From an uncultured bacterium (GTDB lineage Bacteria > Oederibacteriota > PGYV01 > CAWJRG01): a DNA stretch of 64,000 bases. Positions 240 through 7,388 of the stretch are shown one piece after another. Where the stretch lies: contig CAWJRG010000009.1 in NCBI GenBank assembly GCA_963845185.1, positions 608,001-672,000 of the forward strand. Reading direction: 5' to 3'. Below the pieces are notes generated by a model that saw nothing but the letters and a program-made list of their open reading frames with translations, was not told where the DNA came from and searched no databases. Within the stretch, counting starts at the first letter, position 1; every line of letters starts with the position of its first letter. The position numbers and the translations under genes were made by a program.

Positions 240-1427
240 ATGAGGATAGCAATTTCCAAAATCAAAGAAAATCCCAATAACCCGAGGCATGTCTTTGACC
301 AGGCAGAGGACGACAGCCTGGCCGCGTCCATGCAAAAACAGGGACAGCTTGTCGCCTGCGTGGTCAGGCAGGCTGCGTCTGACAGCTTTCAGCTTATTTC
401 CGGCGCACGCAGGCTGAGGGCAGCCAAAAAGAACGGGTGGCCAGAGCTGGAATGCGTCATTGAGGATAAGTCAGAGGGGGATGAGGCCATAGAGCTCATG
501 GTGTACAACGGCGGAAAGAAGCTTTTCTGGCTGGAGGAGTACGAGGGTATTGAATATGCCCGGTCAAAGAACCCAGGTATGACCCAGCAGGAGCTTGCAG
601 ACAGACTTGAGGTAACTCAGCAAAAGGTAAGTTGCGTCCAAAAAGCCTTGTCGTTATTGAATAAATCGGCGCGGGAGGCAATTTACCGGAATCCGGTAAA
701 ATCTGATAATTGGATGGTTACAGAGGCTGCTGTTCTAGCTCTGATCAAGCTGGCAAATGGCCAACCTGATGACCAAGACGGGGTAGAGCAGGCTTTGAGG
801 GTCGTTCTTGACCGCCGAATGACCGAAAAACAGGTAAAGAAGCTGATAGCATGGATTAAGAAAGGCAATTCGCCCGAGACCTTCCCCCAGGACGGTAAGC
901 TGTCAGGGGTAAAGGGGGCAAAACAGCAGAACTTTGACCCTAATGACCAGTATGCCGACCTCTGGCAGCCTTTGCCAAAGAATGTGGCAATCCACAAGAC
1001 TTCAAAGGGGTATAGGATAACCATGAATGTTTCCGAAGCCGAGGCACCGGGCATTGTATATGGGGCAATGGCGTTCAGGGAGTCCCTAGATCAAAAGCTC
1101 AATGGCCAAGGTTCAAATGGCAATAATAAGTACTCCGAAGCTCTGCCGGGGCTGCGGGAAAAGGCGGCGGAACGGATAAAGGCGTGCAACATGCCGGGTG
1201 CTCCGTGCGACGGGGATGGCTCCGAGCCAGGAACCAGGAATCAGAAATTAGAAACTTCAGGTAATTCCGGAAATGCCCCCATGACTCTGTTGAATGGCAT
1301 ATTGAACCAAAAAGTTATATCGACGAGCGCTGACCCTGTTGACCAGATTAAGGCCGAAATGTTAAATAATGGAGCTGATCTTTTAAAGAAAGGCGTAAAG
1401 AAGCTTTGGGATCATTTTAATAAGTAA
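240..1427 (+). CDS. ParB/RepB/Spo0J family protein with HTH and an unrecognised C-terminal half
   Basis: N-terminal NPNNPR...LAASM...LISGARRLRAA ParB motif; HTH-like MTQQELADRLEVTQQKVS. Confidence 0.8.
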   Translation: MRIAISKIKENPNNPRHVFDQAEDDSLAASMQKQGQLVACVVRQAASDSFQLISGARRLRAAKKNGWPELECVIEDKSEGDEAIELMVYNGGKKLFWLEEYEGIEYARSKNPGMTQQELADRLEVTQQKVSCVQKALSLLNKSAREAIYRNPVKSDNWMVTEAAVLALIKLANGQPDDQDGVEQALRVVLDRRMTEKQVKKLIAWIKKGNSPETFPQDGKLSGVKGAKQQNFDPNDQYADLWQPLPKNVAIHKTSKGYRITMNVSEAEAPGIVYGAMAFRESLDQKLNGQGSNGNNKYSEALPGLREKAAERIKACNMPGAPCDGDGSEPGTRNQKLETSGNSGNAPMTLLNGILNQKVISTSADPVDQIKAEMLNNGADLLKKGVKKLWDHFNK

Positions 1428-1572
1428 TCCTGAGCGAAATCGAAGGATGGGATCATTTTAGGAAGGATTTGTGATAAAATTGAAAATGAAAGGCGGCGGT
1501 AAATGATAAGATTTCAACTTTCTGTTCAAGATTTAAAACGCACGAAGCAAGGTCTGGCACTTTTTTTTCTTT

Positions 1573-1728
1573 TTATCAATTAAGAATTATCAATTTTCAA
1601 TGAAATGAAAGGCTTAAATTGACAACATTGACAACTGAGAATTGAAAATTATTAAAAAAGCAGGAGGAAAAAAAGATGAAAAAAATGATTTTAATTATTT
1701 GTTGGTTGTTTTTAATTGTCTGCTGGCC
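1573..1728 (+). repeat. Leader repeat copy 1 (AT-rich imperfect palindrome, GGAGG RBS, signal peptide start); other copies at about 2415-2556 and 3968-4123
   Basis: 1573-1728 is nearly identical to 3968-4123; the middle copy is diverged but shares GAAAATTATTAAAAAAGCAGGAGGAAA and the MKKxIxIICxLFLxVCWP start. Confidence 0.9.
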
Positions 1729-2062
1729 CGTGGGAGTTATGTTGCGAGGCGGGGATAATGCCGGCGCCGGGATAAAAGCAGCTCCGGCCGCTTCGGCAGA
1801 GACGGCAAACAAAAACATACCGGGCGTGACAGAAGAAATAGGCTCAGACGGGGTAAAGACGGTGACGATAAACCTGTCTGAGATAGATGAGAACAAACTG
1901 CCGGAAAAATATGTGCCGGAAGTTATATTGGAGGCGCCGATAATCGGAGCTGAAAGCGGGGAAGGAACGCTTGAATTAAACGGAAAAATGATTGCCAAAC
2001 AGGACATGAATGGAATAATGAATCTCGGGGATAAAAGTTTCACACCCGATGGGACAATCTGA
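1676..2062 (+). pseudogene. Truncated paralogue of the secreted protein at 2502-3713
   Basis: Near-identical to the second copy up to CCCGATGGGAC (2055 matches 2878), then runs into the IS110 remnant and stops. Confidence 0.85.
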
Positions 2063-2210
2063 AACGTAAAACCATGACTGTTCTTTGTGAAGATCAACTC
2101 CGACATAATGCATGTGTGGTTCCTCCTTTGTTATTTTGTTACTCGCATAACTATTTTAACAAAGATTTGGAACCCACGTGCATTCTAATAAACACTTAAC
2201 ATATTATCAG
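2056..2210 (-). mobile_element. IS110-family element remnant (left end plus first ~19 codons of transposase)
   Basis: Minus strand has AAAGGAGG RBS, then ATG at 2113 encoding MHYVGVDLHKEQSWFYVSD, matching the IS110 DEDD N-terminal YVGxDxHK motif; not in the ORF track. Confidence 0.75.
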
Positions 2211-2310
2211 ACCTTGCTTGTTGCATTTTTAAAAGAAAGGGCCGTCGGCAAATGAAAAGATTTCAATTTTCTGTCCGGGATTTAAAACGCACGAAGCAAG
2301 GTCTGGCACT
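2208..2310. repeat. REP/MITE-like element with 12-bp inverted ends; right part also present at about 1487-1561
   Basis: CAGACCTTGCTT (2208-2219) and AAGCAAGGTCTG (2294-2305); GATTTAAAACGCACGAAGCAAGGTCTGGCACT is shared with 1530-1561. Confidence 0.7.
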
Positions 2311-2321
2311 CTTACCGTTCT

Positions 2322-2408
2322 TCCAGCACAGTATATAACAACGAAATGTGGGTAATAGGCGGATATAACGGCATAAATTATTTAAATGACGTTTGGTGGA
2401 GCTATTAA
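2322..2408 (+). pseudogene. 3'-terminal fragment of a Kelch-like repeat gene
   Basis: Encodes SSTVYNNEMWVIGGYNGINYLNDVWWSY*, the same repeat type as the proteins at 35141 and 46197. Confidence 0.8.
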
Positions 2409-2501
2409 AGCAATTATTAATTAAGAATTATCAGTTTTCATTTTAACGATTAGTTAAAAATTGGAAAGTGAAAATTATTAAAAAAGCAGGAGGAAAGAAA
2501 G

Positions 2502-3713
2502 ATGAAAAAAATAATTACAATAATTTGTTGTTTGTTTTTACTTGTTTGTTGGCCTACGGGAGTAATGGCGCAGGTAAATAATAATGCCATTGGGATAACG
2601 ACAACTCCATCCGTATCGGCAGAAACGACAAACAAAAACATACCCGGAGTGACAGAAGAAATAGGCTCAGACGGGGTAAAGACGGTGACGATAAACCTGT
2701 CTGAGATAGATGAGAACAAACTGCCGGAGCGATATGTGCCGGAGGTTATATTGGAGGCGCCGATAATCGGAGCTGAAAGCGGGGAAGGAACGCTTGAATT
2801 AAACGGAAAAATGATTGCCAAACAGGACATGAATGGAATAATGAATCTCGGGGATAAAAGTTTCACACCCGATGGGACGTTTTTAATGTCATCAGTGACC
2901 GACGGCTATCCTGACGAATCCTCGTTTGATGTAAAAATAGACGACAAAGGGAATATCTATATTTTGGATATTCTGAACGGCAGGATTCAAATGTTTAATA
3001 ATAAGGGCAAGCATGTGAAAAATATACCAATAAAAAATAGTTTTAAAACGCGCTGGGACGAAGTTAAAAGCTATAAAATTTACGAGAATTTTAAGAATGA
3101 AATTGCCATAACAGACGGCAAAATATACGTAAGGGACAGGAGTAAAAATAAAATCGAACAGCTTGATGAAACCGGCACAATAAAGGAAACCATAGACATA
3201 CCGGATAAGATAGAAGGACAAGATACAGCGGGAATGAAGCTCTGGGCAGATGAAGAAGGGGTGGGGGTGGGGAAGTGGAAAAATGTCAAGAAAGCGACAA
3301 ACACAATTGACGTTAAACAAATAACACCAAATGAATTTGAAATTTGGCAAAGAGGTCAGAAAATTATGATTGTTAAGAATATACCTTCTGAGGATAATAT
3401 GCAATTAATTTACACTGATAAATTTAATGACACATATTTTTATTTCTTTGGAATGAAGGATAACGGTATTATAAAAGTATCAAGAAATGGTTCGGTTTTA
3501 TCAATTATTAGAGATTGGAAATATCAGTTTGGTAAAGAGTGGTACGATGATTGCGGTAACAAGCCCCAGCCCTTGTTACTGAATTGGGCAAAAAGTATGA
3601 TATTTGATAGCAAAGGCAATCTATATATTTGTTATAAAAATTGTTGCAAAGAAAAAGAAAATTGTTTGAACAAAATTAAAATTATTAAATTGTCACCAGT
3701 TAAAGGAAAATAA
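2502..3713 (+). CDS. Secreted protein with NHL-like beta-propeller repeat(s)
   Basis: Signal peptide ending VMA-Q; VKIDDKGNIYILDILNGRIQMF and MIFDSKGNLYI blades. Confidence 0.75.
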   Translation: MKKIITIICCLFLLVCWPTGVMAQVNNNAIGITTTPSVSAETTNKNIPGVTEEIGSDGVKTVTINLSEIDENKLPERYVPEVILEAPIIGAESGEGTLELNGKMIAKQDMNGIMNLGDKSFTPDGTFLMSSVTDGYPDESSFDVKIDDKGNIYILDILNGRIQMFNNKGKHVKNIPIKNSFKTRWDEVKSYKIYENFKNEIAITDGKIYVRDRSKNKIEQLDETGTIKETIDIPDKIEGQDTAGMKLWADEEGVGVGKWKNVKKATNTIDVKQITPNEFEIWQRGQKIMIVKNIPSEDNMQLIYTDKFNDTYFYFFGMKDNGIIKVSRNGSVLSIIRDWKYQFGKEWYDDCGNKPQPLLLNWAKSMIFDSKGNLYICYKNCCKEKENCLNKIKIIKLSPVKGK

Positions 3714-3962
3714 ATGAAACACAAATATTTGATCTTAGGAATATTCCCGGGAATTATGGGAATATTTTTATTTTCAAATATTTTATATGCTTTGACTGGA
3801 AGTCAAATAATAACAAATGCACAAAATTATGAAAATTTTCCATGGGCATGTAATGCTCAAAATGCAAGGCCTGCAAATACTGGCGCATGGAATTATTATG
3901 ATACAACTGGGGGTGGTGGTAACGGCACAAATTATTTAAATGACGTATGGTGGAGCTATTAA
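3714..3962 (+). pseudogene. 5' stub of a secreted protein fused to the Kelch-gene tail
   Basis: Signal peptide plus ~45 residues, then from 3920 the sequence repeats 2366-2408 (NGTNYLNDVWWSY*). Confidence 0.7.
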
Positions 3963-4070
3963 AGCAATTATCAATTAAGAATTATCAATTTTCAATGAAA
4001 TGAAAGGCTTAAATTGACAACATTGACAACTGAGAATTGAAAATTATTAAAAAAGCAGGAGGAAAGAAAG

Positions 4071-5127
4071 ATGAAAAAGACAATTTTAATTATTTGTTGG
4101 TTATTTTTAATTGTTTGCTGGCCGGGGGGGGTACTGGCGCAGGGGGAGAATACAGGAGTTACAACAAGCCGTAACACAACAGGCTGAATCAGAAACAATA
4201 ATGGCTCAGGGTGAAGGAAATGCAAAATTAAAAGTTGAAGAAGTTTTATTTTGTCCATGGGGAAATGGCAAAGGAAAAATCAATATTAAGGAAGAAAAAT
4301 ACACTACAAATATGGGTCAGGAAGCATTTGAAAGGCATGGGCCTGAAGAATTAAAAGTAGATAATAACGGTGATATATATATATATATTTATGACGGAAA
4401 AAATAAATATATTAAGAAATTTGAGGATGGTCAAGAAAAGAATGTAATATTAAATCCACTTACACCGCAGAGTTGGAAAATTGATGAAGAGGGAAGCATT
4501 ATTATTACAAATGGTATGTATGAACTTAAAACTGAAATATACGATAAAAATTTAAATAAAATGTTATCGAAAACATATATAGATAAAAAAGGATGGGGAT
4601 ATGTTCATTTTTATGGGAATGAAATGGCATTAAGTAACGGGATTTTTGATAAATCAAAAATGGAAAAAATTAAATTCAGGGATAAAGTATATAAAAAAGA
4701 AAAAAAATATCACTCTTTTGATATAACAACTCAAGTTACTTATCCTGATCCTATGCGCCCGGTAGTTAATGAAAAAATCATAATAAGTAACTTAAAAAAT
4801 ATCGGCTGGGACAAAGATGTTTTAGTGCTATCAAGACCAGGTAAAGATGATGTGGGTAGTGTAGAAATATTACATATAAATGACAATGGAGATATATTTA
4901 TTTGCCTTCGAATGTACGAAGCGCGACCTGTAAATATGAGCAGAGATAGTGCGATAATGAAAATAAATAAAAATGGAATAATCGAATATGAATATAAAAC
5001 AATAAAAGATGACTTTATTGAATCTGACGGCAGTGGTCGTTATGCCGTGGATGACAATGATAATGTTTATTATATGTATACAAATGAAAAAGGAGTGCAT
5101 GTTATAAAAATCAGCGAGGTAAAATGA
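4071..5127 (+). pseudogene. Secreted NHL-like beta-propeller protein, frameshifted just after the signal peptide
   Basis: RBS and ATG at 4071 give MKKTILIICWLFLIVCWPGGVLAQ, stopping near 4187; the body (GPEELKVDNNGDIYI, YAVDDNDNVYY) is in the +1 frame (track ORF 4111-5127). Confidence 0.75.
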
Positions 5128-5354
5128 AAAAATTTTGTTTACTTTTAGGCCTTGCGAGTTTAATGATATTGTTTTTTATAGAAAATATTTTATGCCTGGA
5201 TAATATAAATTTCACACAGACTTTTAATGTAGATAATGTATATGCAAATAATGTTCCCGATCAAATATCAATAAAAAATTATATTAAAAGGGTTATTATC
5301 GGCGAAATTGGACAGACATGGAGTCAACAAGCAAATTATTTAAACGGAACGTAG
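5124..5354 (+). pseudogene. 5' stub of a secreted SpoIID/LytB-like protein
   Basis: Signal peptide, then KNYIKRVIIGEIGQTWSQQA resembling the SpoIID YLxGVVxxEMxxSWxxEA motif; it ends where LKAQAVAARTY would follow. Confidence 0.55.
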
Positions 5355-5486
5355 CGGAGGAGTGGAAGCATGGAAGTTCGGGAAACGGAAGGAAGCCGCC
5401 GACTCCTGCGCGCGGGTTCCACTGTACCCAAAACATTTGATTTTCACGCAAATTTTTAGTATTATTAAGACAAGCGAGGTGCAACA

Positions 5487-5678
5487 ATGCATAAAATAAA
5501 AGAAGAATTTATCACGGACAAAAAAGGAAAAAAAACAGCGGTTATTATTCCAATAAAGGAATATGAAGAGTTGATGGAAGACCTTCACGATATTTCAATA
5601 GTCGCGGAAAGAAAAGACGAGTCCACAATATCTTTTGAAGAGGTTGAAAAAAGGTTGAAGAAAAATGGGCGGGTATAG
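5487..5678 (+). CDS. Antitoxin of a type II TA pair
   Basis: FITDKKGKKTAVIIPIKEYEELMEDLHD pattern; overlaps the RelE-like gene. Confidence 0.8.
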   Translation: MHKIKEEFITDKKGKKTAVIIPIKEYEELMEDLHDISIVAERKDESTISFEEVEKRLKKNGRV

Positions 5679-5931
5679 GATAGATTTAAAAAATTCCGCG
5701 TATCACGACCTGAAAAAAATTGACAGGCATATGCAGGCCAAAATACTTGGAGAAATCAAAGGCCTATCGCATAATCCATTTCCATCTGACGTGAAAAAAC
5801 TAAAAGGCACTGAAAGCATTTATCGGATAAGAACGGGGGATTACAGAGTTATTTATAAAATCGAAGAAAACACAATAATTATTTATTATATAAGGCACAG
5901 GAAAGATGCATACGGGTTTTTAAATAGTTAA
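5665..5931 (+). CDS. RelE/ParE family toxin
   Basis: KKLKG...YRIRTGDYRVIY...IRHRKDAY motif. Confidence 0.9.
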   Translation: MGGYRIDLKNSAYHDLKKIDRHMQAKILGEIKGLSHNPFPSDVKKLKGTESIYRIRTGDYRVIYKIEENTIIIYYIRHRKDAYGFLNS

Positions 5932-5995
5932 GCAATGCTTTTGTTATTTTACTCTGTAAATTGGGAATCCTTTAAAGGCTCAAAACAATACAAAC

Positions 5996-6030
5996 ACGGC
6001 GGATGCGGGAAACTGCACCGCCGTTTTTTT
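5996..6030 (+). terminator. Rho-independent terminator
   Basis: ACGGCGG...CCGCCGT stem followed by a T run. Confidence 0.7.
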
Positions 6031-6098
6031 GTTTTCAATAGCCCCAAGTTGTGCGATAATATCCTTATTGACAATAATAAAAACAGCGAGGTGACGTC

Positions 6099-7388
6099 AT
6101 GATTAAAAGATATACTCTTGAAAAGATGGGCGCATTATGGTCAGAGGAAGCAAAATATAATTCATGGCTCAATGTCGAGATAGCGGTATGCGAGGCATGG
6201 GCAAAGCAGGGCAAAATACCGAAAAAGGACCTTGCCAGCATAAAGAAAAAAGCCAAATTTGACGTTAAGCAGATTGAGGAAATAGAGGCCATAAGGCGGC
6301 ATGACGTGATTGCTTTTACTGAATCAGTCGCAAAGCACGTAGGCCCGGCGGCGCGCTATATCCACATGGGCATCACTTCTTCTGATATCGTGGATACGGC
6401 ATTTGCGCTGAGGCTTGTTAAAGCCTGCGATATAGTGATGGAAGACACAACAAAATTAATAGCAACTTTGAAAAAACTTGCCATAAAGTATAAATATACC
6501 GTGCAGATAGGCCGTACGCACAACGTACACGCAGAGCCTATAACTTTCGGGCTGAAAATACTTGTATGGTATTTTGAAATGAAAAGGAACTATGACAGGC
6601 TCAAATACGCAAGGGAAGGCGTGAGGGTGGGTAAACTCTCGGGCGCAGTAGGCAATTACGCCAACATACCTCCTTCGATTGAAAGTTTTACATTATCGCG
6701 GCTTGGTCTGAAAAGGGCAGAGGCGACAAACCAGGTAATACAGCGCGACAGGTACGCGCAGCTCATGACTACGCTTGCCATAACCGCAGGCTCCATAGAA
6801 AAAATAGCCACGGAAATCAGGAATTTACAGCATACTGAGATACTCGAAGTTGAGGAGCCTTTTGCTGAGGGACAAAAGGGCTCGTCTGCCATGCCGCATA
6901 AAAGGAATCCGGTCGTATGCGAGCAGATAACAGGCCTTTCAAGGGTAATAAGGAGCAACTCTATAGCGGCGCTTGAGAACATCACTCTATGGCACGAGAG
7001 GGACATATCCCACTCGTCTGTAGAGAGGATAATAGTTCCGGACAGTTTTATACTCACGCACTACATCACAAACAAAATAAACTGGGTGCTTACTAACCTG
7101 CTTGTTTATCCTTCGAACATGAAAAGGAACCTGCATTATTTAAAAGGAGCCATATTCTCGCAGAGGCTTCTGCTCGCGCTTGTGCAAAAAGGCATGACAA
7201 GGGAAAAAGCATATGAGATAGTGCAGAGTAACGCGATGAAGGTATGGAAAGGCGAGTCGCCTGATTTTATAACAGCGCTGCTTGCCGACAAGGATGTGAA
7301 AAAAGATTTCACGGGCAAAGAGCTTGATAAGATTTTTGACGTGAATTATTATCTGAAGTACGTGGGCGAGTTTTACAAAAGGGTGTAG
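6099..7388 (+). CDS. purB: Adenylosuccinate lyase
   Basis: HDVIAF, GRTHNVHAEP, GSSAMPHKRNP signature, WHERDISHSSVER. Confidence 0.97.
   Translation: MIKRYTLEKMGALWSEEAKYNSWLNVEIAVCEAWAKQGKIPKKDLASIKKKAKFDVKQIEEIEAIRRHDVIAFTESVAKHVGPAARYIHMGITSSDIVDTAFALRLVKACDIVMEDTTKLIATLKKLAIKYKYTVQIGRTHNVHAEPITFGLKILVWYFEMKRNYDRLKYAREGVRVGKLSGAVGNYANIPPSIESFTLSRLGLKRAEATNQVIQRDRYAQLMTTLAITAGSIEKIATEIRNLQHTEILEVEEPFAEGQKGSSAMPHKRNPVVCEQITGLSRVIRSNSIAALENITLWHERDISHSSVERIIVPDSFILTHYITNKINWVLTNLLVYPSNMKRNLHYLKGAIFSQRLLLALVQKGMTREKAYEIVQSNAMKVWKGESPDFITALLADKDVKKDFTGKELDKIFDVNYYLKYVGEFYKRV

Follow-up and report, generated by a model that had tools for sequence, protein, structure and literature searches.

Probable decayed remains of a polymorphic system with exchangeable N-terminal hydrolase heads in the genome of an uncultured bacterium

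The 64,000-nucleotide stretch of DNA analyzed here (the window, C9:608001-672000) contains tandem units in which a gene for a secreted, propeller-type protein is followed by the truncated start of a second secreted gene. These units are probably what decay has left of a polymorphic system whose giant protein can exchange the predicted peptidoglycan-hydrolase head at its N-terminus. Judging from sequence comparison, the giants encoded by related genomes are probably secreted antibacterial cell-wall hydrolases, and their upstream partners the periplasmic inhibitors of those enzymes. More tentatively, these loci may constitute an undescribed polymorphic toxin class distributed across Goldbacteria/FCPU426, Elusimicrobiota and WOR-3, combining T9SS-like export, swappable N-terminal hydrolases that include SpoIID-like weapons, a new beta-propeller immunity family, and mirror-image immunity arrays produced by head displacement, with the source genome disarmed and holding immunity but no toxin.

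Organization of the array

The source genome comprises 3.5 Mb in 11 contigs and is 99% complete. Two genomes of the same order bear the label candidate division FCPU426, a name that the excerpted literature equates with Goldbacteria (PMC7031533). GC content falls to 0.26-0.38 over the array, compared with 0.415 for the contig, and a search of Rfam gave no match within 1400-6100. The features of the region are as follows.

240-1427: ParB-like gene, left flank of the array
1573..2062, + strand: unit 0, with spacer, RBS and a 5' fragment (128 codons, ATG 1676) of a propeller-1-type gene
2057..2211, - strand: left end of a transposase gene with its first 19 codons, 155 bp, cutting unit 0
2231..2313, + strand: second copy of an 80-nt repeat, first copy at 1484-1564
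2313..2408, + strand: tail of a Kelch-repeat gene, a small gene holding copy 1 of a 12-mer and ending NDVWWSY-stop
2409..2501, + strand: AT-rich heptamer spacer and RBS, shared leader
2502..3713, + strand: propeller 1, intact secreted NHL-like beta-propeller-type protein, 403 aa, GC 0.36
3714..3962, + strand: stub 1, signal peptide plus the opening ~65 codons of a giant with an NlpC/P60 head, 82 codons, abutting propeller 1
3963..4070, + strand: second spacer and RBS, shared leader
4071..5127, + strand: propeller 2, GC 0.29, frameshifted near 4171
5124..5354, + strand: stub 2, signal peptide plus the opening ~74 codons of a SpoIID-like head, 76 codons, abutting propeller 2
5487-5931: RelB/ParE pair, right flank of the array

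The gene beyond the RelB/ParE pair is presumably purB. From its motif we take the transposase at 2057..2211 to be of the IS110 type, and the IS-family, RAYT and HEAT-like labels are likewise our assumptions from motifs.

The first-pass annotation, made from the sequence of this DNA, had described two secreted NHL-like genes of low GC. Both ORFs are present at 2502-3713 and 4071-5127 and both are low in GC, but propeller 2 has been frameshifted off its signal peptide: the signal-peptide frame opening at ATG 4071 stops at 4185-4187, and the body of the protein lies in another frame. The two propellers are homologous end to end (hhalign 98%), and both matched NHL in profile searches. Their predicted models are all-beta (pLDDT 85 for propeller 1 and 75 for propeller 2), and the best Foldseek matches of both are all NHL-type propellers, at TM-scores of only 0.2-0.4, so that a closed-propeller shape is tentative. 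The propeller 1 family has conserved Cys residues, and no propeller-1 relatives were found among viral contigs. Three of the 98 other genomes in the phylum encode propeller-2 homologues; a word-index protein search with propeller 2 returned only the self-match, and a profile search returned 19 matches.

Each propeller gene adjoins a coupled secreted gene that has been cut short (82 and 76 codons), and both stubs contain NYLN, as had been annotated. Stub 1 is broken before the catalytic Cys and joined in frame to a Kelch tail, with the junction near 3905-3920 and the second copy of the 12-mer within that tail. Stub 2 retains a Glu (codon 61) that aligns with E101 of Clostridioides difficile SpoIID and lacks the rest of the domain.

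A damaged third unit had also been proposed, and we located it at 1573-2062, where an IS end interrupts it. It is a mosaic, termed unit 0 here: the leader resembles that of unit 2 at 90-94%, and the body resembles unit 1 at 94% (for propeller 1, 94% measured over 287 nt). The interrupting 155-bp transposase end is 100% identical to C9:362915-363069. The repeat copy at 2231..2313 is likely, from its sequence, to be what is left at the 5' end of a secreted gene after a deletion that reached the Kelch tail. A role of the 1484/2231 repeat as a terminal repeat of an IS was provisionally set aside since it reads as a gene start. Across the array, an intact propeller gene survives in one of three units, a proportion that fits decay as well as selection.

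Origin of the repeats

Comparison of the repeats agrees with the annotation that units 1 and 2 start with the same Kelch tail, spacer, RBS and signal peptide. An 84-nt repeat (2366-2449 versus 3920-4003, 90% identity) codes for the NDVWWSY-terminated end of the Kelch gene, whose tail reaches upstream to about 2313 in unit 1 and about 3915 in unit 2. The AT-rich spacer, RBS and signal peptide are common to 1573-1757, 2399-2583 and 3968-4152. Neither element is peculiar to the array: the same kind of Kelch tail ends 18 other ORFs of the genome, and the spacer is a common intergenic element with 28 genome copies at up to 4 mismatches.

The two units had been described as delimited by direct copies of a 12-mer (2375, 3929 and 5333), a claim that we revise. 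Copies 1 and 2 lie inside the coding sequence of the Kelch tail, and copy 3, which falls in the coding sequence of stub 2, codes for NYLN and aligns with the native YLNG/YENG/YLEG of SpoIID-like relatives. Copy 3 is therefore likely to be native SpoIID coding sequence. There are 16 copies of the 12-mer in the genome. In 428 of 20,000 codon shuffles of stub 2, a 12-mer was shared with the Kelch repeat, making copy 3 uncommon, yet no site is needed to explain it; the 12-mer could conceivably have been used as a one-off microhomology. At the array junctions of relatives it was found in none of 120 loci examined, its occurrences in those loci being seven that overlap the window and one inside a propeller gene of locus L068. 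Contig C9 encodes no tyrosine recombinase, and the three in the genome are all on other contigs. Junctions in the window and in relatives have no conserved recombination site at each of them, and the gene upstream of the array is ParB-like. We rejected the 12-mer as a recombination site because it is Kelch coding sequence or matches native SpoIID-like sequence, is missing from the junctions of relatives and is accompanied only by recombinases on other contigs.

Enzyme heads in related genomes

The annotation had likened stub 1 to NlpC/P60-type N-termini and stub 2 to SpoIID and had suggested looking for their full-length versions; relatives do encode full-length enzymes, and profile matches to MepS/Spr and to C. 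difficile SpoIID bear out both assignments. Stub 1 matched in 4 of 40 relatives. Its homologues either form the N-termini of secreted proteins (3,938+ and 5,093 aa) or are themselves comparable stubs (80 and 86 aa), and every one of them lies directly behind a propeller-1 homologue. The NlpC head profile matches MepS/Spr with an E value of 4e-6, with DCSG, a His and an acidic third residue present, and the Cys-His-polar catalytic triad of NlpC/P60 enzymes occurs in the full-length relatives.

Stub 2 used alone as a query gave no match in 40 relatives, and its family was reached via propeller 2. Downstream of propeller-2 homologues we found one protein of 3,193 aa, another that is split (728+994 aa) and a stub of 44 aa, all starting with a SpoIID-like domain. 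The SpoIID-like profile matches C. difficile SpoIID (E 3e-9), in which E101 is described as catalytic in the part of the source consulted (PMC6221140), and it is with this residue that the Glu of stub 2 aligns. Pfam SpoIID matches fall below the cut-off. Both the catalytic Glu and a C-terminal GxGxSQxGA-type motif are found in SpoIID-like relatives. All 7 SpoIID-like domains at the head position have the Glu and all 18 internal ones lack it, counts that are not independent because the sequences are related. Such an internal domain without the Glu occurs in NlpC- and M23-headed proteins. The M23-like heads are a third class, found by searching from the enzyme side; their Pfam matches are weak and below the cut-off, and precomputed assignments place them in PF01551.

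Pairing of partners and heads

The annotation had made its reading depend on co-variation of the propellers with the downstream gene, and across loci partner type does track head type. The propeller 1 family is placed upstream of NlpC/P60-headed giants and the propeller 2 family upstream of SpoIID-like-headed giants. Our pairing scan covered 49 loci with 38 NlpC rows, eight of which were dropped (a continuation, a duplicate, three starting at a contig edge, and three with <120 nt of upstream DNA). A gene matching the propeller profiles lies upstream of 29 of the 30 NlpC heads kept (28 in the scan and one found separately); the profiles were built from many of these partners, and 7 of 7 partners outside profile building also match. 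Locus L068:840 is an NlpC-like head without an upstream propeller. Partners of five of the seven other SpoIID heads are related to propeller 2 by BLAST, those of G018 and G077 being the exceptions. None of six M23-like heads lies behind this propeller family, and the partners of M23-like heads co-cluster with head subtypes. Partners are mostly of low GC and have signal peptides, as judged by eye.

Within the NlpC class, co-divergence of partner and head is weak and confounded by shared ancestry (Mantel rho 0.35, p 0.03, 12 pairs; rho 0.25, p 0.09 without the outlier G029). One propeller superfamily is paired with two enzyme folds that are unrelated to each other, and this would be in keeping with a chaperone role as well. 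Propeller 1 remains, on these comparisons, a candidate periplasmic inhibitor.

Exchange of cassettes on a conserved scaffold

The NlpC/P60-headed giants of relatives are secreted proteins of 3,900–5,100 aa. Genes of this size are large targets for IS elements and deletion. One conserved scaffold with a FlgD-Ig tail bears either NlpC/P60 or M23-like heads, and complete giants end in FlgD_ig, Por_Secre_tail or CHU_C matches. Two contigs of one genome, G016 C54 and C136, match in the LolA-like gene that precedes the locus (85% nt), in a leader of 80 bp (82%) and, over about 3,450 residues, in the scaffold (72% aa, 89-92% nt), but their partners and heads are unrelated (NlpC versus M23-like). Moreover, G004:C18 and G016:C136 occupy the same chromosomal site with different cassettes. 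Partner and head have been exchanged together between the shared leader and the scaffold. The SpoIID-headed protein of G087 does not align with the G016 scaffold and may represent a second scaffold type; in G018, an active SpoIID-like head appears, from the reading frames, to sit on the common scaffold across a frameshift.

A conserved order of Kelch gene, propeller and hydrolase, as envisaged in the annotation, was not recovered: relatives mostly have the LolA-like gene upstream instead. The source genome itself has no full-length giant and no LolA-like partner gene, and its scaffold pieces are generic tail domains only. Of T9SS components, PorV-like genes exceed the cut-off there. A search for X-T4SS subunits, limited to VirD4, found one VirD4-like gene, on contig C8.

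Arrays in other lineages

Beyond the window, tandem partners with truncated heads were seen at 12 loci: 8 out of a set of 22 metagenome loci, G074, L068, L069 (labelled Elusimicrobiota) and L082 (labelled WOR-3). These are not all independent, because some share a dataset prefix or duplicate a genome. Orphan propellers are also over-sampled, since most loci were found with propeller queries. G074 carries a pair of propeller-2 genes, and the first of them is accompanied by a SpoIID stub of 80 aa that closely resembles stub 2. Stub ends range from 11 to about 1,100 codons, and the breaks run into the next leader, at differing points, or into mobile-element ends; a whole head is kept in some stubs (L043, the M23-like one of L040, and L082). 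The final unit exceeds the others in length in L040, L044 and L082, where it extends past the contig end; the arrays of the window, L069 and G074 finish with a unit that is itself broken.

With N-terminal heads and upstream partners, the layout is the reverse of arrays built from a toxin C-terminus plus immunity, as the first-pass annotation recognized. Its further suggestion that the propellers were captured without the toxin seems less likely than displacement or deletion of the head with the propeller staying in place, because stubs, which differ greatly in length, are still attached.

Discussion

In the mechanism that we propose, Sec and a T9SS-like route would export the giants, which would act on the walls of competing kin cells, and the producer's own wall would be guarded by the partner. 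An incoming module of partner and head could be integrated by homologous recombination in the scaffold and an illegitimate, microhomology-based join inside the resident head, which would leave the old partner and stump upstream. Later the source genome would have lost the scaffold, and what survives is an intact propeller 1, a frameshifted propeller 2 and a unit 0 interrupted by an IS. Propeller 1 may then act as an orphan immunity gene against the NlpC/P60 giants of relatives.

Several other explanations bear on the same observations. The partner could serve a giant surface enzyme, one that acts on the cell's own wall or in feeding on other cells, as a chaperone, activator or self-protection factor specific to the head; the arrays would then be leftovers of swapping and decay with no part in kin defence. 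This explanation is in keeping with the damage to two of three units in the window, with the pairing of one propeller superfamily with two enzyme folds, and with a link drawn, in the available portion of the source, between giant proteins of other uncultured phyla and cell-wall degradation by predators (10.1101/2023.11.21.568195). We nonetheless regard it as unlikely, since conflict systems typically show both features seen here, the swapping of partner and head at one site among congeners and the recurrence, across unrelated lineages, of long partner ORFs that stay intact next to stumps. It is less likely still that the upstream units are a silent reservoir of heads that recombine onto the scaffold to switch specificity, like orphan Rhs modules. 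The shared leaders would supply 5' homology for such switching, unit 0 is a mosaic of units 1 and 2, and some stubs keep a whole head; however, the window stubs and several others end before the catalytic core, and the source genome has no scaffold to recombine with.

Insertion of immunity cassettes at the 12-mer by a recombinase, as in rAID-1 or integrons, would account for three copies in register with the unit ends, for a stub 2 that ends just past copy 3, and for a coincidence reached in so few codon shuffles. We find it highly improbable given that two copies are Kelch coding sequence and the third matches native SpoIID-like sequence, that relatives' junctions vary and lack the 12-mer, and that the three tyrosine recombinases are on other contigs. 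Assembly error as the source of the repeats and truncations is scarcely credible: the frameshift in propeller 2 may be a single sequencing indel, but the repeats are 80-94% identical rather than 100%, the contig is 1 Mb, and the same layout recurs in 12 other loci. We favor the decayed polymorphic system described at the outset.

If this reading is true, polymorphic toxin biology would be widened to lineages without cultured members and to T9SS-like export, SpoIID-like enzymes would join the candidate antibacterial effectors, and a new family of peptidoglycan hydrolase inhibitors would be added. It would also give a function to some giant genes of these phyla and imply that the position of the variable domain decides on which side orphan arrays arise. 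The claim lends itself to testing in E. coli with cognate pairs taken from intact loci. We found no prior description of the system in the main texts of the open-access literature, and supplements of large toxin surveys could list its families. As excerpted, the Zhang survey mentions NlpC/P60 toxins and not SpoIID (PMC3482391), and the excerpted account of the T9SS-linked TANFOR toxins places the toxin at the C-terminus (PMC7073777).

In classical polymorphic systems, the toxin is C-terminal and the immunity gene lies downstream (PMC4436062); the window family would work alike but does not follow that layout. Like CDI, Rhs and Maf systems as summarized in the same text, it has a conserved scaffold, an exchangeable enzyme domain, an adjacent matching partner, and arrays of partial enzymes with partners (PMC4436062). 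Unlike them, it has the enzyme at the N-terminus, the partner and orphans upstream, and a predicted periplasmic target.

Individual components also have counterparts. In Pseudomonas aeruginosa, Tse1, an NlpC/P60-type hydrolase, is blocked by Tsi1, a periplasmic propeller-like protein with disulfides, but Tsi1 is a three-sheet partial propeller (PMC3391265, in the part available), and our structure and profile comparisons revealed no homology between it and the propellers here. Tsi3 is described as a beta-sandwich, not a propeller (PMC3792639, in part). The rAID-1 loci resemble the array in their co-directional, low-GC candidate orphan immunity genes and repeated intergenic sequence, and differ, on the portion of the report available, in a 5' tyrosine recombinase that is absent here, where enzyme stumps are still attached (10.1101/471110).

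The T6SS arrays of Vibrio cholerae are alike in that a new module displaces the effector and the old immunity gene remains, and the homology-facilitated illegitimate recombination described there fits the variable junctions here (PMC5361080, in part); the arrays here differ in their mirror orientation and in keeping enzyme stumps. TssB/VipA was not found in the source genome. X-Tfe/X-Tfi pairs of the Xanthomonadales X-T4SS likewise combine a variable N-terminal peptidoglycan hydrolase, a conserved C-terminal export signal and an upstream partner with a signal peptide (PMC6536674, in part), so reverse polarity is already known and novelty in this respect is limited. The window family differs from these pairs in the giants' own signal peptide, in a FlgD-Ig/Por-type tail with no XVIPCD, in tandem truncated heads upstream, and in size, at 3,000-5,000+ aa (500-1,300 aa in the WOR-3 and Elusimicrobiota loci).

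A further orphan partner outside the window

The leader (common spacer and ribosome-binding site) and signal peptide of the window array also occur beyond the window, on contig C6 of the source genome (G000:C6:26998-28050), where they are joined to an unrelated gene of 318 aa, whose product is helical and, judged by eye from its motifs, HEAT-like. Next comes a secreted stub of 30 codons, and the whole set of leader, gene and stub is flanked on either side by an IS element. The 318-aa gene is an additional orphan partner.

Partners and giants in relatives

The usual 5' neighbour of the partner gene in relatives is a secreted gene of 330-370 aa:

L037:81-1088, LolA-like/TP_0789-like gene (Atlas score 0.94), with equivalents in L011, L012, L013, L036, L110 and L116

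Its product is possibly a carrier for the giant, the large secreted protein encoded downstream of the partner; a search of the G000 genome for this gene did not find it. In the WOR-3-labelled array L082, a YARHG domain is added to the propeller partners (133-1512 and 2582-4090).

One mobile-element end truncates four giant heads, each at a different codon (L012:8490, L013:6860, L037:5600 and L053:2045); the transposase adjoining it in L012 is presumably RAYT-like, going by its motifs. At L040:2340-2400 an M23-like giant is broken within its internal SpoIID-like domain, at the motif at which window stub 2 ends, and passes into the next spacer through ~10 nt of common sequence.

Mobile elements and genomic setting

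Within the window, at 2057-2232, an inverted partial copy of the 80-nt 1484/2231 repeat adjoins the IS left end, the flank of which resembles the target of the full element at C9:362915. Immediately 3' of stub 2 is a hairpin-like, GC-rich stretch (5345-5425) with one copy in the genome, and just 5' of the window (G000:C9:604243-607320) stands a tandem pair of 475-aa transposase genes, whose sequences read identical at both ends.

Genome-wide, G000 carries 18 small, lipoprotein-like Kelch-repeat genes and encodes numerous NHL-repeat proteins; its ORFs of >1,600 aa number at least 40. ParB-HTH genes of one family (window 240-1427; C9:321120, C10:426119, C10:318216, C1:272715 and C1:6820), 32-42% identical, mark the start of several AT-rich variable islands holding restriction, toxin-antitoxin and other foreign-looking genes. 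A ParB-like gene likewise adjoins the array in the relative G074.
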